From an uncultured Alphaproteobacteria bacterium (GTDB lineage Bacteria; Pseudomonadota; Alphaproteobacteria; Rhizobiales; Aestuariivirgaceae): a DNA stretch of 64,000 nt. Positions 5,393-54,406 of the stretch are shown here, piece by piece (position 1 is the first letter of the stretch; each line of letters starts with the position of its first letter). The notes beneath the pieces were generated by a model. The model did not search any database and was not told the origin of the DNA. It was given only the letters and a program-made list of their open reading frames with translations. The translations under genes and the position numbers were made by a program. The stretch covers positions 394,660 through 458,659 of the forward strand of contig CAWKKP010000003.1 in NCBI GenBank assembly GCA_963850355.1, in the 5' to 3' direction.

Positions 5393-5408
5393 AATTGATA
5401 TATCAGTT
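5393..5408. promoter_or_regulatory. Near-perfect palindrome, candidate operator
   Basis: AATTGATATATCAGTT (14 of 16 positions symmetric) in the intergenic region upstream of the SBP gene. Confidence 0.35.
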
Positions 5409-5523
5409 GGCCGGACGAATGTTGCACGACAGACCAGCAACACTCGTAACAGAGCCTGAAAACAATTCGGCGTCCATGTTTTGGCAAGGGCACGGATAAG
5501 TAAATGTAATGGGAGGATACCAT

Positions 5524-7157: not shown

Positions 7158-8198
7158 GTGACGCTGATTTTAATCTTTGCAATTTTCCCGACATTTTATT
7201 CCGTCGTCTTCGCGCTCAGTCGCGTTAAATTCTCCCCTGACGGACTGAAATTCCGTTTTGTTTGGTTCCAAAACTTCCAAAAGCAATTTGCGGGTAATGA
7301 ACAAGTCCACTTTCTAGGCCGCTTGGGCGACATCAGTGTTATCGGCTGGTTGCTCATCGCCGTTGCTGCAGCAGCCACAATCTGGTGGCTTTATCGCTAC
7401 GCGATGCGCGAGTTTTGGTGGTTGGGTTTTATTGGCCGCTTGATTTCAGCTGCGGGCTTTATGTTCATTGCTTACCTGCTGGCCGCAACGCTTTTGTCAG
7501 GTAACCAGTGGGGCACGTTGCTGACTACACTGTTTTACGTGCTTGTGGGCTGTAGTTTACAATTTGTCATCGGCACGGGACTCGCATTCCTCTGTTCGCA
7601 ACCCGTCGTCGGTAAAAACTTCTTCCGAGTGTTGTTCTTCATTCCCCTAATGATCACGCCACTGGGCGTTGGTTATGCATTTAAAATGATCCTCGACATT
7701 ACCAAAGGCCCCTTCCAACCTTTCTGGAATTGGATTGGATTGCAGGATTGGGCGTGGTCCACCGATGCGTGGGCCGCGCGCTGGTTTGTCGTGGTGGGTG
7801 ACTCTTGGCAGTGGATTCCCTTTATCTTCATCTGCATGTTGGCCGCATTGGAAAATGTGCCCAAAGACCATGTGGAAGCAGCAGAAGTTGATGGTGCGTC
7901 AAGCGTACAAATTTTCCGCGAAATCATTTGGCCGCAAATTGTTCCCGTCGCTGCAACGGTGTTTTTGATCCGTATGATTGAAGGGTTCAAGATCGTTGAT
8001 CTACCCAACATCATGACTTCCGGTGGTCCCGGCATTGCAACGGAATCCATGTCGCTGCATTCCTTTTTCGTCTGGCGCGCCAATGACTATGGCCAATCAG
8101 CCGCCGTTGCCTATCTCTTGCTCATCATCACGGTTTTGGTGTGCTCTTCCTTCTTCAACTATGTAGTGTTGAAGCAATTGCGGAGGGCGCACGCATGA
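7158..8198 (+). CDS. Carbohydrate ABC transporter permease (MalF/UgpA-like); true start probably upstream
   Basis: Multiple TM segments and the EAA loop EAAEVDGAS. The frame is open back to 7077 (..KSWGEWFDRHARTFFIAPAV) but has no in-frame ATG; a GTG at 7073 is one base out of frame. Confidence 0.88.
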   Translation: MTLILIFAIFPTFYSVVFALSRVKFSPDGLKFRFVWFQNFQKQFAGNEQVHFLGRLGDISVIGWLLIAVAAAATIWWLYRYAMREFWWLGFIGRLISAAGFMFIAYLLAATLLSGNQWGTLLTTLFYVLVGCSLQFVIGTGLAFLCSQPVVGKNFFRVLFFIPLMITPLGVGYAFKMILDITKGPFQPFWNWIGLQDWAWSTDAWAARWFVVVGDSWQWIPFIFICMLAALENVPKDHVEAAEVDGASSVQIFREIIWPQIVPVAATVFLIRMIEGFKIVDLPNIMTSGGPGIATESMSLHSFFVWRANDYGQSAAVAYLLLIITVLVCSSFFNYVVLKQLRRAHA

Positions 8199-9271
8199 GC
8201 AATCAAACCTTCAAACTCGACAAAACCAACCGCACACTGATGCAGCGCCTGTTTGAGCCACCGACGGTTGGCAAAATGTCGCCCGTCGCCAAAGTGGTTG
8301 CTTACTCAATTCTGATTTTCTGGTCGGCCTTCGTGATTTTCCCACTCTATTGGGTGGTGATTACGTCATTCAAAGATGCGCAGATTGTCAACGAAGGTCC
8401 CTATTATATTCCCTTCATTGATTTCCAACCAACCTTAGACGGTTGGCGCCGACAGTTTGTCGACGATGCCGCCAAAGTTTTTCCGGCCTTTTTCAATTCA
8501 GTGATTATCGCTATTGCGTCAACTGCACTCTGTATCGTCATTGGTTCTATGGCGGCCTATGCGTTGGCGCGGATTCAATACAAGCCCAAGTTCGGCAACG
8601 TGATCTTGTTTGTGATCATGTCACTCGCAGCCATTTTAGCCTCGACCTATGCAGGTGTGCATTGGTTCTTTGCAGCAGCCATTGCTTTGGCTTTGTTCTT
8701 TCTTCTTGCGCGCGCTTTTGGCAAACACTTCAAAGGCCAACTTGGCAATGGCGACATTTTGTTCTGGATCATCTCCCAACGCATTTTACCGCCCGTCGTA
8801 GTGGTTATTCCGGTTTACATGATGTTCCAGGCTGTTGGCATGATTGACACCCATGCGGCATTGATCCTGGTTTATGCCGTCGCCAATTTGCCCATTGTTG
8901 TTTGGCTGATGCATGACTTCTTCGCCAATCTGCCCATTGAATTGGAAGAGTCGGCCCAGCTTGATGGTGCCACCCGATTTGGTATTTTCTGGGATATTGT
9001 GTTGCCGCTCACCAGACCCGGTCTCGCAGCAACAACACTTCTCACACTCATTCTCAACTGGAATGAATATCTCTTTGCTGTGTTTCTCTCGACCTCTAAA
9101 GCCCAGACAATGCCTATCATGGTGGCGGCGAAAAACGCAGGCGAGCGCGGCATTCTCTGGTGGGAAATGTGCGCCATCATCGTGGTTATGATCATACCTG
9201 TAATCATCATGGCGATTATTCTACAACGCTTTATTGCCAAGGGTGTTCTCCTTGGTGCAGTCAAAGGTTAG
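8195..9271 (+). CDS. Carbohydrate ABC transporter permease (MalG-like)
   Basis: ATG 8195 overlaps the upstream TGA; EESAQLDGA EAA loop, WNEYLFA and C-terminal QRFIAKGVLLGAVKG. Confidence 0.92.
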   Translation: MSNQTFKLDKTNRTLMQRLFEPPTVGKMSPVAKVVAYSILIFWSAFVIFPLYWVVITSFKDAQIVNEGPYYIPFIDFQPTLDGWRRQFVDDAAKVFPAFFNSVIIAIASTALCIVIGSMAAYALARIQYKPKFGNVILFVIMSLAAILASTYAGVHWFFAAAIALALFFLLARAFGKHFKGQLGNGDILFWIISQRILPPVVVVIPVYMMFQAVGMIDTHAALILVYAVANLPIVVWLMHDFFANLPIELEESAQLDGATRFGIFWDIVLPLTRPGLAATTLLTLILNWNEYLFAVFLSTSKAQTMPIMVAAKNAGERGILWWEMCAIIVVMIIPVIIMAIILQRFIAKGVLLGAVKG

Positions 9272-38428: not shown

Positions 38429-38443
38429 TTTGATTCAATCAAA
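38429..38443. promoter_or_regulatory. Perfect 7-1-7 palindrome, candidate operator
   Basis: TTTGATT-C-AATCAAA between a TTGACA (38401-38406) and the GGGAG RBS of the epimerase gene. Confidence 0.45.
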
Positions 38444-38456
38444 AGCGGGAGTCGTC

Positions 38457-39305
38457 ATGAAATTTGGGTTCAACCTGTTGCTGTGGACACCCCACGTCAC
38501 GGCAGAGCATTTGCCAATTTTGCGCGCCCTGAAAAAGGCAGGTTATGACGGCGTGGAGATTCCAGTATTTGAAGGAACGCCCGAACATTATGCATGGCTG
38601 GGGGGCGAACTTGACAAGTTGGGGTTGGGGCGCACCACCGTCAGTGTGCTCGGTCCCGGTAATAATCCATTGTCATCTGACAAGGCCCAACAGAAGGCGG
38701 CCCTTGACCGGGCAAAGTGGGTCATTGATTGTAACGCCGCTTTGGGGTCCGAGATTCTAGGTGGACCCATGCATTCCGAACTTGGGTATTTTTCAGGAAA
38801 CCCCGCGACCAAGCAGGAGCGTGCCCGAGCCATTTCGTTCCACCGCAAAGCTGGTGACTATGCTGCCAAGAAAAACGTGCGCTTCGCCCTAGAAGCTCTC
38901 AATCGCTTTGAGTGCTATTTATTGAACACCATGGAACAACTGGGTGACTATCTCGACGAGGTTGACCACCCTGCAGTGAAAGCCATGTACGACACGTTTC
39001 ATTCTAACATCGAAGAAAAAGATCCAATTGCTGCCATCAAAACCATCAAGCGGCACCTCATCCATGTTCACATCTCAGAAAACGATCGCGGCACGCCCGG
39101 TCGCGGTCATTTGCCATTGGACGCAACTTACAAAGCTTTGAAGTCCGCCAAATACGATGGCTACATGACCATCGAAGCCTTTGGTCGTGCAATGCCTGCA
39201 TTGGCCGCAGCAACCCGCGTCTGGCGTGACTTCTTTCCAAACCGAGAACAAGTGTACCGCGAAGGCCTGAAAAACATGAAGCAGGGTTGGGCCAAAGCCC
39301 GATGA
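38457..39305 (+). CDS. Sugar phosphate isomerase/epimerase, D-psicose/D-tagatose 3-epimerase family
   Basis: GYDGVEIP, EALNRFECY, YDTFHSNIEE, HVHISENDRG and IEAF metal-binding pattern. Confidence 0.88.
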   Translation: MKFGFNLLLWTPHVTAEHLPILRALKKAGYDGVEIPVFEGTPEHYAWLGGELDKLGLGRTTVSVLGPGNNPLSSDKAQQKAALDRAKWVIDCNAALGSEILGGPMHSELGYFSGNPATKQERARAISFHRKAGDYAAKKNVRFALEALNRFECYLLNTMEQLGDYLDEVDHPAVKAMYDTFHSNIEEKDPIAAIKTIKRHLIHVHISENDRGTPGRGHLPLDATYKALKSAKYDGYMTIEAFGRAMPALAAATRVWRDFFPNREQVYREGLKNMKQGWAKAR

Positions 39306-40505
39306 CATTCCAAAGCCGTTTATGTTGTGGGAACCTTTGATACCAAAGGGGCCGAACTGACATATGCGGCAGAGCGGGTAGTCGCTGCAGGTGCCAAGGT
39401 CGTAACCGTTGATGTATCAACGACAACAAGTTCAACAATCTGCGATGTGTCGGCAGCGCAAATCGCATCCCATCATCCCGCGGGTTCTTCTGCAGTTTTG
39501 GGCCTAAGCGATCGTGGTGCTGCAGTAACGGCAATGGCCGAAGCGCTGACCGCATTTATGCTTCAGCAAAAAGACATTGGAGCAGTTTTGGGGCTTGGCG
39601 GATCTGGTAACACTGCCATCGTGACGGCTGCCATGCGGGCTCTGCCGGTGGGATTGCCTAAAATCATGGTCTCAACTTTGGCCTCTGGCAATGTTGCCCC
39701 TTTTGTTGGGCCGAGCGACATCATGATGATGCATGCCGTCGCAGATATTGCCGGGCTGAATACCATTACGAGGGCCGTGATAGGCAATGCCGCCCATGCT
39801 GCGGCGGGCATGGTGTTGAATGCAGTTCCGCAGTTTCCTCAATCCAAACCCTGCCTCGGCCTCACCATGTTTGGGGTCACAACCCAAGCCATCACACAAA
39901 TTCGTAATCACCTTGAAAACGATAACGAGTGTTTCGTGTTTCATGCCACGGGCACTGGCGGTCAGTGTTTTGAGAAACTGGTTGATTCAGGTTTTCTGAC
40001 GTCCGCTATTGATCTGACAACAACCGAAGTGGCTGATTATCTATTCGGTGGCATTCTTCCTTGTACAGATGATCGATTTGGATCTTTCATTCGCAAGAAA
40101 ATCCCTTACGTGGGCTCAGTCGGCGCGTTAGACATGATCAACTTTGGTCCGCGAGACACTGTTCCGGCACAACACCATGCCCGTAACCTCTACGTTCACA
40201 ATCCCGTGGTTACTCTGATGCGCACAAGCGTTGAAGAAAATGACGCAATTGGAAAGTGGATTGTCCAGCGATTGAACAAGATGGAGGGACCTGTGCGTTT
40301 TCTGCTGCCTCTCAAAAGCGTCTCAGCCATTGATGCACCGGGAAAGCCATTTCATGATCCCGAAGCAGATGCAGCACTTTTTGCGGCCATTCGAAAAGGC
40401 TGGAAATCCGCTGCCAATCGACAATTGATTGAAGTCGATGCCCACATCAACGATCTTGCATTCACGGACAGTGTTGTTGATGCTTACAATGAAATTCTGA
40501 AATGA
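39302..40505 (+). CDS. Tm-1-like ATP-binding domain protein (UPF0261) (1-base insertion near 39308)
   Basis: VVGTFDTKGAE, GLGGSGNT, LPVGLPKIMVST, TMFGVTT, FHATGTGG, DLTTTE and GALDMINF. ATG 39302 overlaps the upstream TGA and gives MTSKAVYVVGT after removing one T. Confidence 0.88.
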
Positions 40506-40511
40506 GGTCAC

Positions 40512-41342
40512 ATGCCAAAGTTTGAACGCAAAACGCTGCTTTCTAAATTCCAAGCCATGGTCAAGGCACGAAAGCCCATCATCGGCGGCGGGGCAGGGAC
40601 CGGCCTTTCCGCAAAATGCGAAGAAGCCGGAGGCATTGATCTTATCGTGATTTATAATTCGGGCCGCTACCGCATGGCAGGCCGTGGTTCACTCGCGGGC
40701 TTGCTGGCCTATGGCAACGCCAATGAGATCGTCAAGGAAATGGCCTACGAAGTTTTACCTGTCGTTTCGCACACCCCCGTGTTGGCTGGTGTTAATGGTA
40801 CCGACCCGTTCATGATAGTGGATCATTTTCTTGATGAGCTGAAAGCGCTGGGTTTTGCAGGGGTGCAAAATTTTCCAACGGTGGGATTGTTCGATGGCGT
40901 GTTTCGCAAAAACTTGGAAGAGACGGGCATGGGCTTTGGACTCGAAGTTGATATGATCAAAGCCGCGAATGCAAAAGACATGCTTACAACGCCTTACGTT
41001 TTCTCTGCTGACGAAGCTGTGGCGATGGCGAAAGCTGGTGCTGATATCATTGTGCCGCATATGGGCCTTACAACGGGCGGTGCCATTGGTGCAGAAACCG
41101 CACTGAAGCTCAAGGATTGTCCAGCTCTGATTGAGAAGTGGGCTGAGGCTGCACGTAAAGTTCGGAAAGACATCATTGTGTTATGTCATGGTGGACCCAT
41201 CTCTTCGCCGGAGGACGCCGCCTACATTTTGAAGAACACCGCAAACGTGCATGGCTTCTACGGTGCAAGTTCCTTGGAACGATTGCCAACCGAGACCGCA
41301 CTCATCCACCAAACCAAGGCCTTCAAGGCCATTTCATTCTAG
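40512..41342 (+). CDS. Phosphoenolpyruvate hydrolase-like TIM-barrel protein (TBST family)
   Basis: [50 protein letters not shown] and GASSLER; typical partner of UPF0261. Confidence 0.9.
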
Positions 41343-41351
41343 GGAAATATC

Positions 41352-42299
41352 ATGGCCCGTGCCTATGCCAGTGCAATAATCGATGCCCCCATTGAAACGG
41401 TATGGGGCGTTATTCGAGACTTTAACGGGCTGCCAAATTGGACGCCCTTTGTTGCAAAGTCGAAAATTGAAAGCGGCCTCGATGCCGATGTTGTTGGCTG
41501 CATCAGGTCATTTCATTTGCACAATGGCACCCATATTCGCGAACGCCTGCTGACGCTCGACGATGCGCGTCACACACTCACCTATAATTTCGAAAAACCC
41601 GCATTCCCGGTGAAGAACTACATCGCCACCATGCACTTGATGCCGGTGACCCAGAGTAACAAAACTTTTGCTGAATGGGAGGCGGTGTTTGACGAGGCCC
41701 CCGAAGAGCATGGCAAATATGAGAAAATCATTTCGAAAGAGGTCTTTGCAGCGGGATGGGCTGCCCTTAACGCTAAGCTGAAGCGGGAAAAACCAAAACC
41801 TCCAACTGGTGCCGTCCGCTGGAAAGGCGGCCAACCCAACAAGGTGTGGACCTCACGCGTTATCAAAGTCCCAAGTGAAAAAGTATGGGCCGTGATGCGT
41901 AACTTTGCGGGCATGGGCGCTTGGCACAGTGACATCACCAAAATGCACATGTTGAAACGCGCGCGTTCTGACAAGGTATCTGGCATTCGGGACTTTTATT
42001 TCGGTGCAGGGCATTTGAATGAAGAATTGCTGCACCTCTGCGACATCACCAAATCCTTCTCCTATCGGATCACCAAAAGTGAATTGCCATGGATCAATTA
42101 TGTGTCGGGTCCGCGGCTATGGCCCGTGACATCGAGCAACACAACATTTGGTGTTTGGACCGGGGATTGGCAGGCCAGTCCGCAAGATGATTTAACGCTG
42201 ATGCCCAACACCGAGCAGAATGTTTACCAACGGGCCTTTGCCGGGGTGGAGCAACTCATCGCGGGGAAAAGCAAGAACCGGACGGCGAAGTTAGGATAG
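41352..42299 (+). CDS. Protein with two tandem SRPBCC (START/Bet v1-like) domains
   Basis: Domain 1 IDAPIETVWGVIRDFNGLPNW..GCIRSF..IRERL..LTY; domain 2 IKVPSEKVWAVMRNFAGMGAW..GIRDF..LNEEL..FSY. Confidence 0.8.
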   Translation: MARAYASAIIDAPIETVWGVIRDFNGLPNWTPFVAKSKIESGLDADVVGCIRSFHLHNGTHIRERLLTLDDARHTLTYNFEKPAFPVKNYIATMHLMPVTQSNKTFAEWEAVFDEAPEEHGKYEKIISKEVFAAGWAALNAKLKREKPKPPTGAVRWKGGQPNKVWTSRVIKVPSEKVWAVMRNFAGMGAWHSDITKMHMLKRARSDKVSGIRDFYFGAGHLNEELLHLCDITKSFSYRITKSELPWINYVSGPRLWPVTSSNTTFGVWTGDWQASPQDDLTLMPNTEQNVYQRAFAGVEQLIAGKSKNRTAKLG

Positions 42300-42443: not shown

Positions 42444-42773
42444 TCAATCTGTATGAAACACACTTTCCGCGCTCGCCCACCACTCCCCAGCCTTGCGCGT
42501 TTCAAGCGGCACCTGCATCGGGTCGGTGATATCCCACCATTCCTGCATGCGCGGCGCTGATTTGATGCGCTCCATATCACCGTCATAGTCCGTACCCACA
42601 TACTCCCAATAGGAGATCAGCAAGTTTTCAGGCTCTTTGAGAAAAATACTGTAGTTGCGCACATTGCTGTCGGCGATGGCTTTAAGAATTTCAGGCCATA
42701 CTGCGGCATGTATGCGTTTGTACTCAGGAATGATCTCTGGTTTCACAGCGATAATGCGGCACATTCTTTCCAT
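42444..42773 (-). CDS. L-rhamnose mutarotase family protein
   Basis: EYKRIHAAVWPE, NYSIFL and QEWW motifs; ATG 42773 with GAGG RBS; 109 aa. Confidence 0.88.
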   Translation of the reverse strand: MERMCRIIAVKPEIIPEYKRIHAAVWPEILKAIADSNVRNYSIFLKEPENLLISYWEYVGTDYDGDMERIKSAPRMQEWWDITDPMQVPLETRKAGEWWASAESVFHTD

Positions 42774-42783
42774 AGGCAGTCCC

Positions 42784-43476
42784 TCAATAGGTGGCGCGAC
42801 CGCCTGAAATGTCAAACACAGCACCCGTGGAGAATGAGCATTCCTCACTGGCAAGCCAGCAAATCAAACTGGCCACTTCGTCTACCGTGCCAAATCGCGG
42901 CTTTGGAATTTTGGCCAGCATGAAGTCGATATGCGCTTGCGGCATCTGATCAAATATCGGCGTGCGCACAGCAGCAGGTGTTACGGCATTCACGGTGATA
43001 TTGGTTTTAGCAAGTTCCTTGGCCAATGATTTGGTAAATCCAATCACCCCAGCCTTTGACGCGGAATAGGCGGAGGCATTGGGGTTGCCTTCCTTTCCTG
43101 CAATCGACGCCACATTGACGATGCGGCCATAATTCTGCGCCACCATGATCGGCACCACAGCTTTGTTGGTAAAGAATGTTCCATTCAAATTGATGGCGAT
43201 GGTCTGCATCCATCCGTCAACAGGAAACTCGGTCACCGGCACAGTTGGCCCAGTGATGCCCGCACTGTTTACCAGAATATCAATGCCACCAAGTTGCTTC
43301 AAAGTCTGTGAAACGGCATTCGCAACTGAAGTGACATCGGAAATATCGGTGATGATAGCGCCATTCATATCCCAAATGGCCACACGACCACCTTCGCTTT
43401 CAATGCGTTGAGCAACGGCTTCACCGATGCCTGAAAGCCCCCCTGTGACGACCGCACGCTTACCTGTAAATCTCAT
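42784..43476 (-). CDS. SDR oxidoreductase, similar to 2-keto-3-deoxy-L-rhamnonate 4-dehydrogenase (LRA5) type
   Basis: TGGLSGIG, NSAGITG, ASIAGKEGNPNASAYSASK (YxxxK) and C-terminal DISGGRATY. Confidence 0.82.
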   Translation of the reverse strand: MRFTGKRAVVTGGLSGIGEAVAQRIESEGGRVAIWDMNGAIITDISDVTSVANAVSQTLKQLGGIDILVNSAGITGPTVPVTEFPVDGWMQTIAINLNGTFFTNKAVVPIMVAQNYGRIVNVASIAGKEGNPNASAYSASKAGVIGFTKSLAKELAKTNITVNAVTPAAVRTPIFDQMPQAHIDFMLAKIPKPRFGTVDEVASLICWLASEECSFSTGAVFDISGGRATY

Positions 43477-43510
43477 AACTCAGTTTCCCATTTTCTCATG
43501 GAGTAACAGT

Positions 43511-43942
43511 TCAGCTTTTCTTGGATCGCATCCAAATCAAAAGTGCGAGAACTGTTGCAACGCCAGCAACACTCCACACAAAGGGATGTGCATAAAACTT
43601 CGTCGCAGCCAACATTGCCTTTCCGGAAGTTGTGTTCGGATCAGGTGGTTTCAGGAAAAACACGCCATAAAGATGCGCCGCTGCAATCGACACAACGAGC
43701 ACAATGCAAAACACCATGGCCACCACCATGGCGATCGTAATGACGGAACGCGTTTGCACACCAGGTTGTGCCAAAGGCAAAAGATTATTGATCAAACCCG
43801 CAAGTACCACAAGAATGGCACCCAATGAAAACAGGCCGATGCTGAAGGGTTGAAAAATCAGGATCAACGCCACAATGCCAAGACCGATGATTGAATACTC
43901 CATGCGCCGTGCGCCCACATTGCTCAATGCACCATTGCTCAT
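43511..43942 (-). CDS. Small integral membrane protein of unknown function
   Basis: 143 aa with ~4 hydrophobic segments; ATGA overlap with the upstream ATPase stop. Confidence 0.78.
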   Translation of the reverse strand: MSNGALSNVGARRMEYSIIGLGIVALILIFQPFSIGLFSLGAILVVLAGLINNLLPLAQPGVQTRSVITIAMVVAMVFCIVLVVSIAAAHLYGVFFLKPPDPNTTSGKAMLAATKFYAHPFVWSVAGVATVLALLIWMRSKKS

Positions 43943-45027
43943 GCGCGCACCGCCTTTCCATCTTGCCCAAAGACATGAGTTTGCGAGGGGTCTAGCTTGA
44001 GCGTCAACGCCTCACCCGTTTTCACCTTTTTCTCACGCGCCACTACAACACGAATGTCATTGCCCTGTTTTGTGCGCGCGTGAATGAGGGTTTCGGCCCC
44101 CATGGGTTCAATCAATTCCGCAACGGCTGAAATTGTATCGGAACCTTTTACTGAAACCGGAATAAACGCGCGCGGACGAATGCCGATGGTAATTTTTCCA
44201 CGCTCCAATTTGCCAACTGCTGGGTTAGCTGCGAGTTTGATTTGTTGATCGCCCAATCGTAAATCTGCAACGCCACTGTTGTAAGCGCTGAAGTCTGCTT
44301 CAACCAAATTCATTTGCGGTGTGCCAATAAAGCTGGCCACAAACACATTGGCAGGTTTTGCAAACACTTCATGTGGCGAGCCAACTTGTTCAATCAATCC
44401 ATCGCGCATGATGGCGATGCGATCTGCCATCGTCAGCGCCTCGAGCTGATCGTGTGTTACGATCACCGTAGCCTTCGACAGATTAGACAGCACCTGTTTG
44501 ATTTGTCCACGCATGGAATGCCGCAACTCTACATCGAGACGCGACAGTGGTTCATCGAACAGAAAGCAATTGGGATCGCGCACAATCGCACGCGCAACGG
44601 CAACACGTTGCTTTTCGCCCTCGGACACTTGCCCGGGCAAACGGCCTAACACGTCCTTGAGATGCAGAATGTCAGCGACTTTGTTGACTCGCGCTTCGAC
44701 CTCTGCTGCTCCAAGTTTTTCATAGTGCAGAGGCATGGCAATGTTTTCGCCAACGGTTAGCGCGGGATAGAGCGCATAGAATTGGAACACCATGGCGATG
44801 TCTCGTTTTTCAGGCGGCAGCGCATTCATGTTATGACCACCAATGATCACTTCACCTGACGTCGCGCGTTCAAGTCCTGCGATCATCCGCAGTGTGGTTG
44901 TTTTGCCGCAGCCTGATGGCCCGAGCAGGCATACGACTTCGCCAGCATTCACCGACAAATCAGCATCGCGCACGGCGGTAAACTCACCGAATTTCTTTGT
45001 GATCTTTTTGATTTCGATTGTCGACAT
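43939..45027 (-). CDS. Sugar ABC transporter ATP-binding protein (degenerate signature)
   Basis: GPSGCGKT, LFDEP and VTHDQ are canonical, but the signature reads VSEGE. Confidence 0.93.
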   Translation of the reverse strand: MSTIEIKKITKKFGEFTAVRDADLSVNAGEVVCLLGPSGCGKTTTLRMIAGLERATSGEVIIGGHNMNALPPEKRDIAMVFQFYALYPALTVGENIAMPLHYEKLGAAEVEARVNKVADILHLKDVLGRLPGQVSEGEKQRVAVARAIVRDPNCFLFDEPLSRLDVELRHSMRGQIKQVLSNLSKATVIVTHDQLEALTMADRIAIMRDGLIEQVGSPHEVFAKPANVFVASFIGTPQMNLVEADFSAYNSGVADLRLGDQQIKLAANPAVGKLERGKITIGIRPRAFIPVSVKGSDTISAVAELIEPMGAETLIHARTKQGNDIRVVVAREKKVKTGEALTLKLDPSQTHVFGQDGKAVRA

Positions 45028-45028
45028 G

Positions 45029-45973
45029 TCAGCGCTTTACCGTTCCGAATGTAACGCCGCGCAGCAATTGGTCCTGCAGGAAGAACGTCACGAAAAACAC
45101 CGGGATCAAAAACAGCGTTTCGATGGCTGCAAGCAATCCCCACAACACACCAATACCACCACCACCCACAGCCTGACTCATGCCCACAGGTACGGTGCGC
45201 GTATCAACGCCTGTGAGGAGGAGGGCGAACAGAAACTCGTTCCACGTGAGAATAAGTCCGAACACAAATGTTGCTGCAAGGCCCGCCAAGACTTGAGGCA
45301 GACAAATTTTAAAGAAGACTTTGATGTCAGATGAACCATCAATGCGTGCAGCATCTTCAACATCCAATGAAAGTTCATCAAAGAAACTCTTCATCATCCA
45401 GATCGTGAATGGTAAATTGAATGCGGTGTAAAGCAGAATAATGCCGATGTATGATCCCGATAGACCTGTCACCCGGAACATCAAGATGACAGGAATGATC
45501 ACAACGATGGCAGGTAACATGCGCGTTGTCAGGATGATAAAGAGATAAGTGTCATTGCCTTTTAAGGGATAACGCGAAAAGCCAAAAGCCGCGAGTGTGC
45601 CGATGACGAGAGCCAGAAAAACCGACACGCCTGCAATCACAAGAGAATTGAAAAAATACTTTGCAAAGCCAGTATTCTCAACCACGCCACCCGATGTCAT
45701 GGCACGTGAAAACACCGATGTGTAATTTTCCAGTGTCGGCGTGAAGGTAAGATGTTCAGGGATCAATCCAAAGAACGTAGTGGGGAAGAACTTAGGCGGA
45801 ATGGCCAGCGCTTCAGTCTGAACTTTGAAGCTGGTGATGATGATCAACAGAACGGGCAAAAAGTAAATCAAGCTGATGACACCAGCAAACAGAGTCTGCC
45901 CCCAGCCAGCTTCGCTCACGCCAGAGGCTTTGCGAAAGCCAAGCTTTTCCCAGAGGGATGAAGACGCAGCCAT
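45029..45973 (-). CDS. Carbohydrate ABC transporter permease (MalG-like)
   Basis: EDAARIDG EAA loop, WNEFLFA and TM helices. Confidence 0.92.
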   Translation of the reverse strand: MAASSSLWEKLGFRKASGVSEAGWGQTLFAGVISLIYFLPVLLIIITSFKVQTEALAIPPKFFPTTFFGLIPEHLTFTPTLENYTSVFSRAMTSGGVVENTGFAKYFFNSLVIAGVSVFLALVIGTLAAFGFSRYPLKGNDTYLFIILTTRMLPAIVVIIPVILMFRVTGLSGSYIGIILLYTAFNLPFTIWMMKSFFDELSLDVEDAARIDGSSDIKVFFKICLPQVLAGLAATFVFGLILTWNEFLFALLLTGVDTRTVPVGMSQAVGGGGIGVLWGLLAAIETLFLIPVFFVTFFLQDQLLRGVTFGTVKR

Positions 45974-47037
45974 CAGTTTGCTCCTTCGCTGCGCCGATTG
46001 GCGATGTAGAGGTAAAGATTGGTGAGCACGATCACAATGAACAGCATGACGTAGGATATTGCAGCGCTTTCGCTGGTTTTGTTTTGCTCACTGGCAAGAC
46101 GTTGGAGATGATAGGCAATGGTCATCGTATCATTGCCGCCCTTGGTGAGCAGCTGCACCATGTCGGAAAGTTTAAACGCTTCAATGGTGCGGAACAATAG
46201 TGCGAGCATGAGAAGGCTGCGGATATAGGGGAACGTGATGCTCCAAAACCGACGCCAACTTGAAACCCGGTCGATGGCAGCTGCTTCATAAAGATATTTC
46301 GGCACCGACACGAGACCAGCAAGCACGAGCAGCATGACGAAGGGCGACCACATCCACGCGTCAGCAAACACGATACCCGCAACGGCACCGGCCTTATTGT
46401 CCATCAAGATAAACTGTTGGTCAGTGAAAAGACGAATAAAATAACTGAGCAATCCAAATGTGGGATCGTAATAGTATGAAAAGAACACACCCGCAGCGAC
46501 AACCGACAGCATCATCGGTGTCAGCACGAGAATAAGAAGATACTTGCGCAACGGAAACTGTTTGGAGAACAGCAACGCCAGCAGAAATCCAACAATCATT
46601 TGAGCTGCAACCGTCAGCACCACGAACATTGCTGTGTTGACAAGGTTGGCCCAGTTCTCAGGTGCCTTCAAATCATCGGTCAACACTTTGGTGTAATTGG
46701 TAAGACCAACAAAGCGAATGGTCTGCTGGTTGGATTGATAGGCGAAGAAAGAAAGGCCCAAAGACCAGAGCAACGGAAAGATGTTCATCACAAACAAAAC
46801 CGCAATAGCGGGAGCGACCAAGAGGCCACCATAATTATGCCTGCGAAAGGCGTTGACGGTGATAGCTGCAGCAACAAGTGCGGCCATGGCACCCACTGTC
46901 CAAAAGGAAGCAGCAGCGGGGAGTGTTGCAATAGCAACGGCTGAAACAACGAGCCCTGCCAAAATGGCGAGCTTCCAGTTGTCGGGCCGCAGCGTGAAAA
47001 GACTTTGCGTTGGTGCGATGTCGAGTGTTGCGGTCAT
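45973..47037 (-). CDS. Carbohydrate ABC transporter permease (MalF-like)
   Basis: EAAAIDR EAA loop, WMWSPF and RTIEAFK. Confidence 0.92.
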   Translation of the reverse strand: MTATLDIAPTQSLFTLRPDNWKLAILAGLVVSAVAIATLPAAASFWTVGAMAALVAAAITVNAFRRHNYGGLLVAPAIAVLFVMNIFPLLWSLGLSFFAYQSNQQTIRFVGLTNYTKVLTDDLKAPENWANLVNTAMFVVLTVAAQMIVGFLLALLFSKQFPLRKYLLILVLTPMMLSVVAAGVFFSYYYDPTFGLLSYFIRLFTDQQFILMDNKAGAVAGIVFADAWMWSPFVMLLVLAGLVSVPKYLYEAAAIDRVSSWRRFWSITFPYIRSLLMLALLFRTIEAFKLSDMVQLLTKGGNDTMTIAYHLQRLASEQNKTSESAAISYVMLFIVIVLTNLYLYIANRRSEGAN

Positions 47038-47120
47038 GCGACGGTAAAATGCCTAAAGATGAAATGTTCCCCGACGTTGCCGAAGTGCGCGGGGAATTCG
47101 ACGACAATTTGAGTGACGAA

Positions 47121-47154
47121 CAAATGTGCGCAGCACGATCACTGCGCACATTTG
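47121..47154. terminator. Perfect 13-bp hairpin downstream of the SBP gene
   Basis: CAAATGTGCGCAG-N8-CTGCGCACATTTG; a second TTCCCCG..CGGGGAA stem lies at ~47067-47097. Confidence 0.65.
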
Positions 47155-47162
47155 CAAGAGTG

Positions 47163-48596
47163 TTACTTGATCAATCCAGCTTCCGTCAGCAAGTTCTGTT
47201 GGAACTTGGCAACATTGTCCAAAGTGGTCTTGGCGTCTTGTTTGCCGGTGATGGCAAGGTCGAACTGGTCTTGCTGTTGCGTCAGCAGTTCAAAGAACTG
47301 TGGCACGTGCCACACGTCTTTTTGCCAATCCAGCGAGGCCGCCCAAGCGCGGTTCCAAGGACGATACGTCACATACTTTGGATCGGTAAACACCGACTTC
47401 ATGGCAGACTGACCACCTGATGCAGCAAACTGATGCTGAATTTCAGGCGACAACCACCACTTCACGAAGCCCATGGCTTCGGTCAGCTGTTCTGGTGTGG
47501 TCCATGTGGTGAGCACGAATGGCTGACCACCGATGTTGGACCAACGCACCATCTTGCCATCAGCACCCATTGTGCCGGGAGCCATGCCGAACACCAACTT
47601 GTCAGAGACTTTTGACGTCTTCGGATCAAGCGAGGCTTCGCCAAGACCAATCCAGTCAATGTTCATGGCAACTTTGCCTTCACGGAACAATTCGTCTGAC
47701 TTGAAAATGTCCATCGTGCCGGTTTTTGCCACAGGCGGCATCAGATCAATGAAGCTCAAGTAGCTTTCCAAAGCCTTCACTGCTTCTGGTGAGTTCACAA
47801 CGCCTTCAGCTTGTCCTGTTGGTTGCTTGGTTTCATCCCACGTGCCACCACCCATTTGCCAAATGAAGCCGTTGATCTGCATCGACGAGAAGTCGTAGCC
47901 TTTACCGGCTTGGAATGCGATGCCGTAGAAATCATCATCGGCAGGTTTGCCTGCAAGCATTTCACCTTTTTTGCGTTTGAAGAAAACGCCAACATTCTTG
48001 AAGTCGTCCCAAGTCATGGCGTCAAGTTCTTCGCCCGTGCAGGGAAGCTTCTTGCTGAACTTTGCCATGAAGGCTTTCTGTTCGTCTTCATTGCAAAGAA
48101 TGTCAGAGCGGCCAAAATTCACCAAAACGTCGGGGAATTGTGGGAAGCCATAATAGTTCGGCGTCGAGTTTGGATAGGTCGAATAGGCATTCAGCGGCGC
48201 TGGATGCATATCAGCCATGGTCTTTTGCAATTCAGGATCGGCATCAATCAAGTCGTTCACTTTGCGGAAATAACCACCTTCAACAAAGGCACCCAACCAT
48301 TGCGAATCCGAAACGGCGAAATTGTATTTCTGTTCGCCCGATGTCAGCGATGCGTTGACGCGCGTATAGAAATCTGGCCATGGAATGAAATCGACTTCGA
48401 GTTTAACGGTGTTGCCGGTTTTCGATTTGTACTGCTCGTCGAACATCTTTTTCATGATGCGCGTTGGTGGCCAATCCGGCACAGCCATTGTCAATGTCAC
48501 TTCGCCAGCAAACGCGTTCAGCGCGCCGCCAACGGTCAGCGATGCAGCAAAGGCAATCCCCGCCACAATGCTTTTGGTTTTTGTCATATAGCTCAT
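47163..48596 (-). CDS. Sugar ABC transporter substrate-binding protein
   Basis: ATG 48596 with GGAGG RBS; signal peptide MSYMTKTKSIVAGIAFAASL..AFA; family 1 SBP features. The ORF-track start at 48788 overlaps the ATPase and is over-called. Confidence 0.9.
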   Translation of the reverse strand: MSYMTKTKSIVAGIAFAASLTVGGALNAFAGEVTLTMAVPDWPPTRIMKKMFDEQYKSKTGNTVKLEVDFIPWPDFYTRVNASLTSGEQKYNFAVSDSQWLGAFVEGGYFRKVNDLIDADPELQKTMADMHPAPLNAYSTYPNSTPNYYGFPQFPDVLVNFGRSDILCNEDEQKAFMAKFSKKLPCTGEELDAMTWDDFKNVGVFFKRKKGEMLAGKPADDDFYGIAFQAGKGYDFSSMQINGFIWQMGGGTWDETKQPTGQAEGVVNSPEAVKALESYLSFIDLMPPVAKTGTMDIFKSDELFREGKVAMNIDWIGLGEASLDPKTSKVSDKLVFGMAPGTMGADGKMVRWSNIGGQPFVLTTWTTPEQLTEAMGFVKWWLSPEIQHQFAASGGQSAMKSVFTDPKYVTYRPWNRAWAASLDWQKDVWHVPQFFELLTQQQDQFDLAITGKQDAKTTLDNVAKFQQNLLTEAGLIK

Positions 48597-48645
48597 ACTC
48601 TGTTTCCTCCATTGATGAACTGTATTTGCTTCCTGCCGCTGTTCG

Positions 48646-49731
48646 TCATGTGAGAGCCTGACCATTTGCAGCATTGAAGATGTGGAACTTTTTGGGATCA
48701 ATATAAATGTCAGCCATTTGGCCGGGTTGAATGGCAAGCGCGCTGCTTTCCGGCACCACCATGCGTAATGTTTCGCCTGCAGCTTCAACAGAGATCACGG
48801 TGATATCGCCCAGTGGCTCCAGCATTTGTACGCGAGACTTGGTTGCAGCTTCGCCTTTTTGGGCAAAGCGAATATCACTGGGCCGGATGCCAAGGAATGC
48901 CGCTTCGCCAGTTTGAACAGATTTCAGTTTCGCTTTCGGCACTATGGTACCGAGTGACGTCTCAAACGCGCCCTTGTTGGCTTTGGCCTTGATCATATTC
49001 ATGTGCGGCGAACCAATTTTTCCGGCCACATAAATATCGCTCGGGTTTTCATAAAGCTCGTCCGGCGTGCCCTGTTGGACAACAGCCCCATCCCGCATGA
49101 CGGCAATTTCTTCACCCATCGACAATGCTTCAAGCTCGTCAGGTGTTGCATAAACAATCGTCATGCCAAACTGGCGGTGTAAGCGTTTCAACTCGGCGCG
49201 CATGTCGTGGCGGAGTTTCGCATCAAGATTTGTCAGAGGTTCATCAAGCAGCAGAATTTTAGGACGGCGGATGAGCGAGCGACCCAAAGCCACGCGTTGT
49301 TGTTCACCACCTGATAAGGTGCTGGGCTTGCGTTCTAACCTTGGCAGAAGCTTTAGCATGGTGGCGGTTTCTTTCACCCGCTTGTCGATGTCTTCACGCG
49401 CTACACCTTCTTCGCGCAAAGGATAGGCGAAATTCTCATAGACGGTGAGATGCGGATAAAGCGCAAAAGACTGAAACACCATCGACACCCCGCGACCCGC
49501 GATAGGTGCCGCCGTGTGGTCTTGTCCAAATATATCAACGCGGCCAACATCGGGGCGCACCAATCCTGCAATTGTTCTTAAGGTCGTGGTTTTGCCAACA
49601 GAGCTTGGTCCAAACAGCACGAAGAAGCGGCCATCAGCAACTTCGAAGGAGAGGTTCTCAAGTGCGCGCACCGAACCATAGGATTTGGAAACCCCTGATA
49701 ATCGTAACGCTGGTGTCGTCGCTTCAGACAT
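48646..49731 (-). CDS. Sugar ABC transporter ATP-binding protein (degenerate Walker A and H-loop)
   Basis: GPSSVGKT, LSGGEQQR and LLDEP, with H-switch YATPD; ATG 49731 with GAGG RBS. Confidence 0.92.
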   Translation of the reverse strand: MSEATTPALRLSGVSKSYGSVRALENLSFEVADGRFFVLFGPSSVGKTTTLRTIAGLVRPDVGRVDIFGQDHTAAPIAGRGVSMVFQSFALYPHLTVYENFAYPLREEGVAREDIDKRVKETATMLKLLPRLERKPSTLSGGEQQRVALGRSLIRRPKILLLDEPLTNLDAKLRHDMRAELKRLHRQFGMTIVYATPDELEALSMGEEIAVMRDGAVVQQGTPDELYENPSDIYVAGKIGSPHMNMIKAKANKGAFETSLGTIVPKAKLKSVQTGEAAFLGIRPSDIRFAQKGEAATKSRVQMLEPLGDITVISVEAAGETLRMVVPESSALAIQPGQMADIYIDPKKFHIFNAANGQALT

Positions 49732-49803
49732 CAAACCATCCTCGATGCAACTGGAAGCAATTGAGACTAACCCGCCGTTTGAAACATGCAAGCCCTGAGT
49801 TGA

Positions 49804-50943
49804 TCACTTTGCGGTCTCCCATTTTCCGGAGGCAGCAGATTTCAGAACCGCATCTGTCACCAGATCTGTTGCCAATGCATCACGGAAGGTTGGGGCAGCG
49901 GCTTTGCCCGTTTCAAGCCCTTCGATAAAGTCGGCGGCTTGGTGCACAAAACTGTGTTCGTATCCGATTTGCAAACCCGGCACCCACCACTTGGACATAT
50001 AGGGATGATCGCCGTCTGTGACGTGAATAGAGCGCCAACCGCGCGTTCGGCCTTCATCCCGGTGATCGAAATATTGCAAGCGGTGCAGATCGTGAAGGTC
50101 CCATTGGATCGAGGCCTTCTCACCATTGATCTCCAAAGTGTAGAGCGCTTTGTGACCACGGGCGTAGCGCGTAGCTTCAAAATTTGCGAGTGAACCATTG
50201 TCAAAGCGCGCCAAAAACAAACTGGCGTCGTCGATGCCCACTTTTTCTAATTTGCCTGTAAGGGTGTGCTCTCGTTCCTTGATAAACGTTTCTGTCATGC
50301 CGATGACGGTGTTGATGCCGCCGTTGAGCCACATGGCTGTATCAATGCAATGGGCCAGCAAGTCGCCAGTCACACCGCTGCCAGCAACATTCACATCAAG
50401 CCGCCAAAGGCCTTGGCCACCTTGGGGCAAGTCTGCTGAAATTGTCCAATCCTGTAGAAACTTGGCACGATAGTGAAAAATCTTGCCGAGCTTTCCCTCA
50501 TCAATAAATTGTTTGGCAAGCGTAACAGCTGGAATACGCCGATAGTTATACCAGACCATGTTGGCGACTTTGGCTGCCTCAACGGCCTTCACCATTGCGG
50601 CTGATTCCTTGGCATTGCGACCAAGCGGTTTTTCACACATCACCATCTTGCCAGCAGCTGCGGCAGCCATCGCAATGTCCATATGCATGTCGTTCGATGC
50701 GGCAATATCAATAACGTCGATGTCTTTGCGCTCGACAAGTTTGCGCCAATCAGTTTCCGTTAACTCATAGCCCCACTGATCAGCGAAGGCTTTGAGTTTG
50801 CCTGCATCGCGGGCGCAGGCCGCTTTCAAAACAGGTTTGTGTTGCAGATCAAAAAAATGTCCTGCTTGTGAAAACGCATTGGAATGTGCACGACCCATGA
50901 AGCCATAGCCGACCATGCCAATGTTAAGAGGTTTCTTGCTCAT
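49804..50943 (-). CDS. Gfo/Idh/MocA family oxidoreductase
   Basis: [22 protein letters not shown] and GYEHSF; ATG 50943 overlaps the upstream stop. Confidence 0.92.
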
Positions 50944-51995
50944 CACGCTTGCCAACCGTGTTTGTCGCGCACCTTGATCATGGCCGCGAGAATGTCGTTC
51001 CAAGTTTTCTGTTGCAGCATCACATCATTGGGGAACATGCAGCCATCCCAGCAAATATGGCGGAAGGCTTTGGTCAGTGCGCCGTCGCGATCGCGCAACC
51101 AATAGCCAGCATGCTTCGGCACATCGAGTTTACCGTTCTTATCGGTGATCATGCAGTGCTTACCAGTCTTGTCATGATAGCCAAGACCCTTCACCGTGCC
51201 GTCGTTCTGTGCGACATGGAAGTCAATTGTCCACGGTCGCAGCGCATCGGTCATTTTCTTCAATGCTTCGTCGAGAGTTTTCTTGCTCTTCCAATCAAAC
51301 TTGGCAGGAAGCAGACGCGACTTTGGCGCGTTGTAACCCATCGTATATAAAAGCGTGTGCGCCATATCGGCTTGGAAACCAATGGTCTGCGGGCGATCCG
51401 TTTCTTCAAGGGTGTTGATCATATCGCGCCAAGAATGCATGCCGCCCCAGCAAATTTCACCTTCAGCTGCGAGGCGTTCGCCATAGTCAGAGGCCACGCT
51501 GCATGCTTCGCGGAAAGTTTTTGCGATCTTTTTTGTATTGCCAACAGGGTCTTTGGCCCAATCGGCAGGACCAGCAGCCGAGTCAATGCGAACAACGCCA
51601 TAGTGCCTAACTCCGAGATCGCGCAATCGCTTGCCGAGCTTGCAAGACTTTTCAACATTGGCCACGAACTTCTTGCGATCAGCTAGCGACCCCATTGCCG
51701 ATCCCCCGCCGACGGGCGGCCAAACGGGGGCCACGATTGAGCCGATGTTTAAGTTTTTCGCACGCACCTTGTCGGCAAGCCGTTTCACTTCATCATCTGT
51801 GAAATCAAGATTGGTGTGGGGTGCAACATGGAAAATGTCGATGCCGTCAAACTTGACACCGTCGACGCTGGCATTGGCTGTGAGGTCTATCAAAGTGTCG
51901 AGTGCAATGCCCGGTTCCGATTCTGATCCCTTGCCCACAAGTCCGGGCCACATTGCGTTATGGAGTTTGGGATAGTTGTTTTTCCCGGCCATCAT
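50943..51995 (-). CDS. Xylose isomerase-like TIM barrel protein (sugar phosphate isomerase/epimerase superfamily)
   Basis: [41 protein letters not shown] and HICWDG acidic/His metal-ligand pattern. Confidence 0.8.
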
Positions 51996-52053: not shown

Positions 52054-52077
52054 AACTGTTATATTAGTATGACAGTT
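52054..52077. promoter_or_regulatory. Imperfect 24-bp palindrome, candidate GntR/FadR operator
   Basis: AACTGTTATATTAGTATGACAGTT (20 of 24 symmetric), directly upstream of the GntR ATG in the divergent promoter region. Confidence 0.55.
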
Positions 52078-52771
52078 ATGCAAAAACTACTCCGCGAAAC
52101 CCGGCTTGATCGTAAAGCGCCGCTTGCGAGAGCAAATTTACACCTTGATTAGAAGCCTGATTTTAACAGGGAAAATCGGCCCCAGCGAAGTCATTGACGA
52201 GAAAGAAATTGCTTCACTCCTGAAGATTTCACGAACGCCCGTGCGCGAAGCCGTGAAAAAACTGAGTGACGAACACCTTGTCGACGTTGTCGCGCAATCG
52301 GGTACGCGCGCGTCTCGCATTGACCGCCATGAAGTGGAGCAAGCCTTCTTGATTCGCCGCGCATTGGAAATGGAAATCGCGGGACTGGCGGCCCTTCGCA
52401 TGTCGCAAATTCATGTCGATGCTTTGTCGGACATATTGATTGCTCACGCACGAGCCATTGAACGCAAAGACTTTATTGAGGCCATTGCCATTGACGATCG
52501 GTTTCACCGCACAATTGCTGAGATCAGCAATATGCCACGCCTGTGGCGTGCAATTGAAATTTCAAAAGCCCAACTTGACCGTTGCCGTTACATGATGCTG
52601 CCGCGCTCAGGCGAAGCTGAAGCAACACTTGAACAACATCGTGAAATCATCCGTGCATTGAACAGTAGAGATCCTGAACGCGCAAGACTTGCCATGGGTT
52701 CTCATCTTGAAAAGGCATATAGCAATGCGGCCAAAGTGCTTGATGCCGAATTGAAGAAGACCGGCAACTAA
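52078..52771 (+). CDS. GntR/FadR-family regulator with FCD domain (1-base insertion near 52125)
   Basis: ISRTPVREA wHTH, DDRFH and EQHREI; ATG 52078 gives MQKLLRETRLDRKAPLREQIY after removing one T. Confidence 0.9.
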
Positions 52772-54406
52772 CCTCGACTGGCCAAGCCTTCAAACAGCAT
52801 CGCAACGGCCTCGGCACCGGGATCGGTCACTCCATTCAAGTTTGACTCTGAAACGTAACTCGAGCGACCAGCACGGGCGCGTTTCATCTTTGCAGTCGCA
52901 TCAGCACCTTTGCGAGCGGCGCGTGCGGCATCCTCCACGATTCCGCCACGAGACAATACAGTCGAGGGCAGGCACCAAGGCATCAAGCATCGTGCGGTCG
53001 CCGGGCTTTGCCCCACCATAGGCCATCATCTTTTCAAGGCCAGCGTGCAACGCATTCTGCCATGACTGCCCCGAAGCGGCGGCTTGGCCTGCAGCCGTGA
53101 ACATGATGGCCATTAACACGCCGCTCGAACCACCCATGCTGCGCATGAAGCTGGCGCTGGCTGACGAAAAGAATGCATCAAGTCTGGCCAATGGCAATTT
53201 ATGAAGGTTGGCTTTCAAGTGCCGTGCTGCTGTTGCAATGGTTGATCCTGTATCCCCATCGCCGACTTTGGCATCGAGTGCATTCAGTTTTTGTTCCGCT
53301 CCAAGCAGAATATCGCAACTGCTTCCAACCAATGCAGCCAAAGCATCGTTTTTGCTGGCTCGTACCGGTTTCACTTTCATCGCGCGCGGCAGTTTTACCA
53401 ATTTCGGTTGCACGTGTGTGTGCATGCCTGGCCACACCAATGGGGCTGCAGGTGATTTGAGCGCAACTTCAAAGTCAGGTGTCAATGGCAACAGGCTCAA
53501 TGAAAAGCCGTGCATATCCAGCGAAGTCACAAGTGCTGCAGGTCCACACACAAGTTTGATCTTTTTGCCGTGGCGACTTTTCAAAACCTCATTCGCCAAT
53601 AAATTCATTTCGAGCGGCGTAGCAGAACCAAGATTGTTGATCATTAAGGCATAGCTGCGGGCAGGTTTCACTTTCTTAAACAGGCGATCAGTGACGAGAG
53701 CGACGGAGTGTTGCGCACCTTGGAATGTGACCAAATCCGCGCCCGGTTCTCCGTGAATGCCAAGTCCCAGTTCGGCTTTGCCATCGGGTATGCGGTCTTC
53801 ACGGCCAATGCCGGGCAAGGTGCAAGACGTCAACGCAATGCCCAATGAAACCAGCCCGTCTGCGGCGCGCTGAGCGATATGAGCGACCTTTTTGAGCGGC
53901 CAACCCTTGGCCGCATAATGGCCGGCGATCTTTTCAACAAACAACACACCTGCAATGCCGCGTGGTTGTTCAATCCCTGGAATTGCGATGTCTTCTTTCA
54001 CGATAATAATTTCGACCTGCTTGCCAAGGGCACGCGCGCGTTCCGCCGCAAGACCAAAGTTCAAGCGATCGCCAGTGTAGTTTTTGAAAATCAACAAGCA
54101 GCCACCCTTGCCAGTCACAGACATAATGGCTGCAAACACGGCATCCACACTTGGGGAGGCAAAAACTTCACCGCATACAGCGGCCGTCAAAAGTCCCGGA
54201 CCCACAAACCCTGCATGGGCTGGCTCGTGTCCAGAACCCCCGCCAGCCACAAGGGCCACGTGTTTGGCATTATGATCGGTGCGCAAGATCACTTTGATGC
54301 CGGGATAGCCATCAAGCCGCGCCAAATTTGCACCACCAGACGATCGCAACAGCCCATCCAGCGCGTCAACGACGAGTTTTTCCTTGCTGTTGATGAATTG
54401 CGCCAT
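52768..54406 (-). CDS. dhaK: Dihydroxyacetone kinase family, fused DhaK-DhaL (ATP-dependent) (1-base insertion near 52960)
   Basis: GGGSGHEPAHAG, KNYTGDRLNF, GIHGEPG, DGDTGST, MGGSSG, GDRTMLDAL and C-terminal AGRSSYV..DPGA in the adjacent frame; ~545 aa. Confidence 0.88.

Follow-up and report, generated by a model that had tools for sequence, protein, structure and literature searches.

A ten-gene operon at positions 42444-51995 of the window, the 64,000-nucleotide stretch of alphaproteobacterial DNA analysed here, opens with genes for a 350-aa barrel (TIM) and a Gfo/Idh/MocA enzyme (GFO), continues with an ABC (ATP-binding cassette) importer and ends with a short-chain dehydrogenase/reductase (SDR) and a RhaM-family mutarotase (MUT). 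The reading that we favour, with a little less than even confidence, treats the operon as the part of a GntR(FCD) regulon that carries the transporter; the regulon would serve the oxidative, non-phosphorylative breakdown of an L-6-deoxyhexose-type carbohydrate similar to fucose or rhamnose, with TIM and GFO as the front-end module. By sequence, the SDR and MUT can be assigned to a route already characterised, the non-phosphorylative 6-deoxyhexose (diketo-hydrolase) route, which ends in pyruvate and L-lactate; they are not orphans, because other steps of this route are encoded elsewhere in the genome and tied in by a predicted GntR operator. A previous reading made from the sequence alone (the sequence-only reading) had found that the operon matched no recognised pathway, and had allowed that missing steps might be encoded elsewhere. 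For the SDR and MUT the first statement does not hold and the second largely does, since the known 6-deoxyhexose steps lie elsewhere behind the operator half-site, while the TIM-GFO pair and the importer were not placed in that pathway.

A predicted GntR regulon

The 14-nt half, AACTGTTATATYAG, of the predicted operator was found in exactly three copies in the 3.15 Mb, 8-contig assembly that was searched, against 0.015 expected (mean of shuffled 14-mers). These copies precede the TIM operon, a pair of genes for an Amidohydro_2 protein and a UxaA-family dehydratase, and an LldD-like gene followed by the gene of an LRA6-like FAH hydrolase, the third copy being located ~35 nt 5' of the LldD-like gene. 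The full operator had one further match in the genome (20/24), between the Amidohydro_2 gene and the UxaA/GarD-family dehydratase (523 aa). The sole curated match of the Amidohydro_2 gene, a weak one, was L-fucono-1,5-lactonase, and the FAH hydrolase scored 421 bits on the model for LRA6 (2,4-didehydro-3-deoxy-L-rhamnonate hydrolase; cut-off 500). An additional operator-like half-site at C8:810446, between thioredoxin-reductase-like and aminotransferase genes, was taken as chance.

The near-palindrome was kept in all the related proteobacterial loci examined (n = 17/17), and in related loci the GntR orthologues were always divergent from TIM. Among congeners, the operator or a variant of it preceded TIM in 13/15 genomes. 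Five genomes, including the source genome, carried it before the UxaA-type dehydratase and lactonase genes, once with an aldo-keto reductase gene between, and three, the source genome again included, before LldD or LldD-FAH; further occurrences in congeners were at an epimerase/UPF0261 operon (1 genome), at a mutarotase and CUT2 binding protein (1 genome) and at an MFS transporter (2 genomes). Lactonase, UxaA-type dehydratase and FAH genes were all absent within 10 kb of TIM in the 80 loci kept for neighbourhood counts, from a species-genome scan with 590 confirmed TIM relatives, indicating that the link is regulatory and not positional. Regulon membership rests on the motifs and their conserved placement, these being predicted GntR sites.

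All ten genes of the operon were located on the minus strand, divergent from the GntR gene, as the sequence-only reading had described, and the regulator was of the FCD type. The features are the following:

50943-51995, minus strand: TIM, xylose-isomerase-fold barrel, 350 aa, weak PF01261 match
49804-50943, minus strand: GFO, Gfo/Idh/MocA NAD(P) dehydrogenase, 379 aa from ATG, levoglucosan-dehydrogenase / scyllo-inositol-dehydrogenase clade
48646-49731, minus strand: ABC ATPase 1, MalK/UgpC type, from family models
47163-48596, minus strand: periplasmic solute-binding protein, 477 aa, CUT1 type, with signal peptide (PF13416 and PF01547)
45973-47037, minus strand: ABC permease 1 (PF00528)
45029-45973, minus strand: ABC permease 2 (PF00528)
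43939-45027, minus strand: ABC ATPase 2, from family models
43511-43942, minus strand: small hydrophobic membrane protein, 143 aa, always 3' of ATPase 2
42784-43476, minus strand: SDR, LRA5-like, 2-keto-3-deoxy-6-deoxy-aldonate 4-dehydrogenase type, 230 aa (6D9Y match)
42444-42773, minus strand: MUT, RhaM-family mutarotase of L-fucose-mutarotase type, 109 aa (PF05336)
52054-52077, no strand assigned: predicted GntR operator, 24-bp near-palindrome AACTGTTATATTAGTATGACAGTT, between the GntR start and the operon promoter
52079-52771, plus strand: GntR/FCD-family predicted repressor, divergent (PF00392 and PF07729)

TIM ends and GFO begins within a shared TGATG, the genes of permeases 1 and 2 and those of ATPase 2 and the membrane protein also overlap, and the remaining gaps in the operon are of 1-125 nt. 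The probable start of the GntR gene is the in-frame ATG immediately beside the operator, at 52079, and not the listed TTG at 52106; the repressor is probably autoregulated.

Two further loci bear on this regulator. At 5393-5408 of the window, an operator-like near-palindrome, AATTGATATATCAGTT, was detected ~100 nt 5' of a second CUT1 importer (binding protein 5509-7002, permeases 7158-9271), which may be part of the same GntR regulon or of that of the paralogue described next. The gene at contig C3:249769-251730 (L083:9752-11731) encodes a GntR paralogue with 62% identity and is transcribed divergently from the gene of a 388-aa protein whose FAH-domain match is weak. This paralogue shares 74% identity with the GntR that adjoins TIM in locus L001, and no clear operator was found in the spacer that separates it from the FAH-like gene.

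SDR, mutarotase and the diketo-hydrolase route

The labels of LRA5-like SDR and RhaM-family mutarotase, which had been given from the sequence alone, were borne out. The SDR matched PDB entry 6D9Y with ~256 bits, and the alignment places its K189 and R227 opposite Lys209 and Arg247 of that protein, so that the basic pocket residues of the LRA5 group are kept. Entry 6D9Y is a putative L-KDR (2-keto-3-deoxy-L-rhamnonate) 4-dehydrogenase, and Lys209 and Arg247 have been proposed to lie in its active-site pocket (PMC11199699). The SDR is 17 residues shorter than 6D9Y; since this deletion is common to its orthologues, which have the same length of 230 aa, the gene is not a broken one. It resembles LRA5 and is a predicted NAD+-dependent C4 dehydrogenase of 2-keto-3-deoxy-L-rhamnonate. 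MUT matched PF05336 with 107 bits, and scored 140 bits against the L-fucose mutarotase 7BYU/7BYW versus 36 and 27 bits against the L-rhamnose mutarotases YiiL and RhaU; from these scores it looks like an L-fucose mutarotase (FucM) type. Its gene is also found 3' of the operon in Rhodobacterales relatives. At L004:13149-13919, and at the matching position in several congeners, a further SDR gene, which the window lacks, was present in opposite orientation between SDR and MUT, and the best PDB match of its product (219 bits) is annotated as L-xylulose reductase.

The non-phosphorylative L-rhamnose/L-fucose diketo-hydrolase route is represented by LRA1, LRA2, LRA3, LRA5 and LRA6 and by FucM, FucA, FucB, FucC, FucF and FucG (Watanabe and co-workers, PMC11199699). 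Five of its six steps were found linked by the operator (mutarotase, lactonase, dehydratase, 4-dehydrogenase and hydrolase), the predicted Amidohydro_2 lactonase gene reading in three frames. As in the known route, the source genome has a RhaM-family mutarotase, an Amidohydro_2 lactonase, an aldonate dehydratase, an LRA5-like SDR, an LRA6-like FAH hydrolase and L-lactate oxidation. In contrast, its genes are spread over three units sharing one operator, its dehydratase is of the UxaA/GarD type instead of the enolase type, no SDR-type 1-dehydrogenase was found, and the locus adds the TIM-GFO pair, the CUT1 importer and a kinase. The operon itself was confirmed to be devoid of kinase, lactonase, dehydratase, aldolase and FAH genes; the non-phosphorylative deoxy-sugar route proposed in the sequence-only reading is supported by the SDR and MUT together with the lactonase, dehydratase and hydrolase units that share the operator. 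A simple rhamnose or iol variant was rejected because a complete phosphorylative L-rhamnose locus of the rhizobial type (RhaS, fused RhaD, RhaI and RhaU), as well as canonical iolD and iolB, are present elsewhere in the genome. In this regulon the genes of a known pathway are scattered among several loci, a pattern that would escape an analysis confined to single operons.

The TIM-GFO pair

Searches with TIM yielded a weak PF01261 match (40 bits), no match to PDB sequences at E<=1 and no match to the IolE model. Its AF2 (AlphaFold2) model, with a pLDDT of 94.8, is a (beta/alpha)8 barrel, and on this model the xylose-isomerase type of the fold is certain. Fold searches gave tied Z values of 24-25 for IolE, IolI, ketose 3-epimerases, xylose isomerases and AtHYD, the best Foldseek E-values being those of xylose isomerases; given this flat tie across the xylose-isomerase fold, the subfamily cannot be named. 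Acidic and histidine residues at the strand ends are conserved (E180, D210-x-x-H213, H260, D265 and D317, the last nearly invariant), a pattern that we take to resemble the ligand set of two-metal sugar isomerases. At least 8000 TIM homologues were scored, all significant, and the top 120 listed were each at least 70% identical; clustering at 50% left the family mostly in one cluster, plus a few full-length relatives at 33-47%. A protein atlas searched with TIM returned only the atlas's own generic clusters. A profile comparison with the genome's own L-rhamnose isomerase produced no alignment. TIM as a ring-opening hydrolase was weighed against the Thermotoga maritima IolG/M/N/O and Luteolibacter L-galactose routes and no evidence for it was found; the chemistry of those routes is shared with the window epimerase and the UxaA step.

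The best family match of GFO was the NCBIfam levoglucosan dehydrogenase model NF052479, with 320 bits at full length (equivalog cut-off 650 bits), and on the IolG model it obtained 102 bits, below the cut-off of 355 bits. Among solved proteins the scores were 329 bits at full length for 4H3V, 260 for the levoglucosan dehydrogenase (LGDH) 6A3F and 154 for Pl-scyllo-IDH, so that the comparison with levoglucosan-type Gfo/Idh/MocA enzymes drawn earlier from the sequence was sound: LGDH is the nearest characterised relative. Entry 4H3V is a structural-genomics 'oxidoreductase domain protein', still uncharacterised, which has been placed in one clade with these relatives, among them Pl-scyllo-IDH, the scyllo-inositol dehydrogenase and L-glucose 1-dehydrogenase of Paracoccus (PMC5969746).

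GFO was directly 3' of TIM in 58/80 loci, which belong to Pseudomonadota, Bacteroidota, Planctomycetota, Acidobacteriota, Verrucomicrobiota, Chloroflexota and Poribacteria, and in which TIM was 64-88% and GFO 60-89% identical to the window proteins. The ABC importer and the small membrane protein were attached only in Alpha- and Gammaproteobacteria. Directly upstream of TIM, a ~405-aa protein was encoded in 26 loci from Bacteroidota, Acidobacteriota and Planctomycetota (e.g. L057:8756-9973), for which no Pfam or NCBIfam match was obtained; directly downstream of the pair, 23 loci encoded a DUF1080 / '3-keto-disaccharide hydrolase' protein. Other neighbours outside Proteobacteria were DUF4432, ThuA-like and cytochrome c proteins and an MFS transporter, and flavobacteria carried a zinc-dependent alcohol dehydrogenase (Zn-ADH) and a second Gfo enzyme beside TIM-GFO. 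A ketose-3-epimerase-like barrel, 42-55% identical to the product of 38430-39305 in the window, accompanied the pair in 15 loci of other lineages. In the congener G006 (locus L113) the TIM, GFO, SDR and MUT genes are contiguous and the ABC genes form an inverted unit ~8-14 kb off, beside the epimerase/UPF0261 operon. This contiguity, together with the presence of MUT in the Rhodobacterales operons, argues that TIM and GFO belong functionally with the deoxy-sugar enzymes. The pair is abundant and 64-70% identical between phyla, without a characterised or solved close relative, and orphan oxidoreductase/barrel pairs abound in genomes of Planctomycetota, Bacteroidota, Acidobacteriota and Verrucomicrobiota.

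The levoglucosan pathway, LgdA-LgdB1-LgdB2-LgdC (PMC7676230, PMC10066097), offers a first comparison: its C3 dehydrogenases regularly have barrel partners, and an LgdB1-type barrel of ~275 aa was reported beside LgdA in 253/265 loci (PMC10066097). The source locus is similar in having a GFO nearest to LgdA, with xylose-isomerase-fold barrels and an ABC importer alongside. It differs in that TIM, the barrel adjoining GFO, belongs to a separate 350-aa family without a detectable sequence link (the ketose-epimerase-like barrel encoded 3 kb away has 291 aa), in that no LgdC is encoded there, and in that the regulon context is one of deoxy-sugar acid and not of glucose. The 3-keto-glycoside modules (YcjS/YcjR/YcjQ of Escherichia coli, BT2156-2159 of Bacteroides, and AtHYD of Agrobacterium tumefaciens, a 2-hydroxy-3-keto-glucal hydratase, 8RO4) likewise combine a Gfo enzyme and a TIM barrel acting on a keto-sugar, and the DUF1080, ThuA-like and Zn-ADH neighbours of TIM-GFO in other phyla are a further likeness. 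Matches of the window proteins to the BT_2158/2159 NCBIfam models were weak and partial (32-36 bits), and the structural match of TIM to AtHYD and YcjR was no better than to other members of the fold.

Candidate roles of the operon

Under the favoured reading, the ABC system would import the sugar or a derivative of it, GFO would use NAD+ to oxidise the incoming pyranose or pyranoside at a ring hydroxyl of the C3 type, and TIM, as a metal-dependent enzyme, would enolise the keto-sugar for elimination, hydration or epimerisation, so that a deoxy-sugar that is modified or held in a glycosidic bond could enter the route. MUT would equilibrate the anomers, the UxaA-type enzyme would dehydrate the aldonate to a 2-keto-3-deoxy acid, the SDR would oxidise this acid at C4, the FAH hydrolase would split the product into pyruvate and L-lactate, and the LldD-like enzyme, which resembles L-lactate dehydrogenase, would oxidise the lactate; a Dak1+Dak2 kinase (DAK) or a PfkB kinase would phosphorylate a ketose-type side product. 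Support for this reading comes from the position of GFO nearest to levoglucosan dehydrogenase and from the genes for DUF1080, ThuA-like and epimerase proteins that accompany the pair in other phyla, which fit it. The location of the pair in a compact regulon of recognisable deoxy-sugar enzymes yields a short list of candidate substrates.

A bolder and unlikely version makes TIM-GFO a new phylum-spanning pair that oxidatively unlocks bound or modified 6-deoxy-L-sugars (rhamnosides, fucosides, ether or anhydro forms), or that epimerises via a 3-keto intermediate. In the unlocking case, the co-regulated UPF0261, PEP-hydrolase-like and SRPBCC proteins would handle the released partner molecule. 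If this version is true, the regulon of Aestuariivirga would be the earliest setting to point to a substrate class for thousands of orphan homologues.

Several results weigh against the favoured reading. GFO falls below the LgdA equivalog cut-off and represents a related branch, not an equivalog; the fold search singled out no 3-keto-sugar enzyme for TIM; and the TIM family and the 4H3V-like Gfo branch have no characterised member. MUT looks like the fucose type, whereas the SDR and the FAH hydrolase look like the rhamnose type (LRA5/LRA6). No separate sugar 1-dehydrogenase was found at the lactonase locus in the source genome or in most congeners, the aldo-keto reductase being present there in one congener only, with a nearest source-genome relative that is 30% identical. 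The classical 6-deoxyhexose route does not explain a role for the kinase. Finally, split frames or an internal stop were observed in the Amidohydro_2 lactonase, RhaU, second IolD (internal TGA), Gfo paralogue and LldD-like genes; they may reflect gene decay or assembly indel errors, and those of the lactonase and LldD-like genes affect the regulon itself. Split-frame genes are located at C1:148800-149545, C1:72647-72941 and C3:480152-483115.

The absence of another 1-dehydrogenase candidate from the source genome and most congeners, where the lactonase and the aldonate dehydratase are present, is the starting point of a second explanation, which we consider somewhat unlikely. GFO would itself be the 1-dehydrogenase of the regulon (the equivalent of LRA1/FucA), converting the beta-anomer supplied by MUT into the 1,5-lactone, and TIM would be an accessory isomerase or epimerase, possibly a two-metal one, that widens the range of usable sugars or opens a ketose branch phosphorylated by DAK/PfkB. 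MUT shares the operon with GFO, as it does in Rhodobacterales relatives, the GFO clade contains the L-glucose 1-dehydrogenase Pl-scyllo-IDH (PMC5969746), and TIM keeps its strand-end residues and has its best Foldseek E-values with xylose isomerases. However, GFO is far nearer to LGDH, a C3 enzyme (260 vs 154 bits), the congener bearing the aldo-keto reductase has TIM-GFO too, and the profile comparison of TIM with the rhamnose isomerase of the genome gave nothing. Nor would this explanation account for TIM and GFO being obligately coupled in phyla without lactonase or dehydratase genes at their loci.

The kinases bear on the remaining explanations. One of them is encoded just beyond GntR, in synteny with the operon:

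52901-54406, minus strand: DAK, Dak1+Dak2 ATP-dependent kinase of the glycerone-kinase family

The sequence-only reading was right that the operon has no kinase; a kinase nonetheless belongs to the locus, given DAK beside GntR and PfkB genes inside the operons of relatives. About half of the related loci have DAK next to GntR, and most of these have no PfkB; in many relatives a PfkB gene, whose product scores best on the IolC model, lies between the membrane protein and SDR genes. When the related loci were counted together with ten congener regions, DAK only was recorded in the window and ~6 others, PfkB only in ~10, and both in 2; this largely either/or pattern suggests that the two kinases have the same function.

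Two explanations built in part on these kinases are weaker than both the favoured reading and the 1-dehydrogenase role for GFO. In a cyclitol module of the iol/moc kind, which is very unlikely, GFO would oxidise an inositol isomer or inosamine, TIM would be an inosose dehydratase or isomerase, and the SDR and MUT would have a separate function. The clade of GFO with scyllo-inositol dehydrogenase, the presence of IolE and IolI among the tied top fold matches of TIM, and the IolC-like PfkB of relatives point this way; the canonical IolD and IolB elsewhere in the genome, the lack of an IolE model match for TIM, the contiguous TIM-GFO-SDR-MUT unit of a congener, the lack of any cyclitol role for a mutarotase, and the regulon partners, which yield pyruvate and lactate from deoxy-sugar acids, all point away from it. 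Equally improbable is a polyol/ketose pathway, in which GFO would convert an imported polyol to a ketose, TIM and the ketose 3-epimerase would interconvert ketoses, DAK or PfkB would phosphorylate the product, and the deoxy-sugar genes would share the regulator only. It would fit the alternation of DAK and PfkB, the ketose-3-epimerase family of the convergent-operon epimerase and the extra L-xylulose-reductase-like SDR of congeners, as well as the importer with two ATPases and a small membrane protein, which presumably resembles rhizobial glycerol/polyol systems. Nevertheless, the operon itself contains MUT and the LRA5-like SDR, both of which remain beside TIM-GFO where the transporter genes have been relocated, and half-site matches in the source genome occur only at the TIM operon and at the two sugar-acid/lactate units.

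The solute-binding protein had a weak PDB match (5IAI). For the small membrane protein no family match was obtained in the Pfam and NCBIfam models; its orthologues, with 38-73% identity, occupy the same position in related loci. On the other side of MUT lies a syntenic operon, which is kept downstream of MUT in congeners:

38430-42299, plus strand: convergent operon for a ketose-3-epimerase-like barrel, a UPF0261 protein, a PEP-hydrolase-like protein and a double SRPBCC protein

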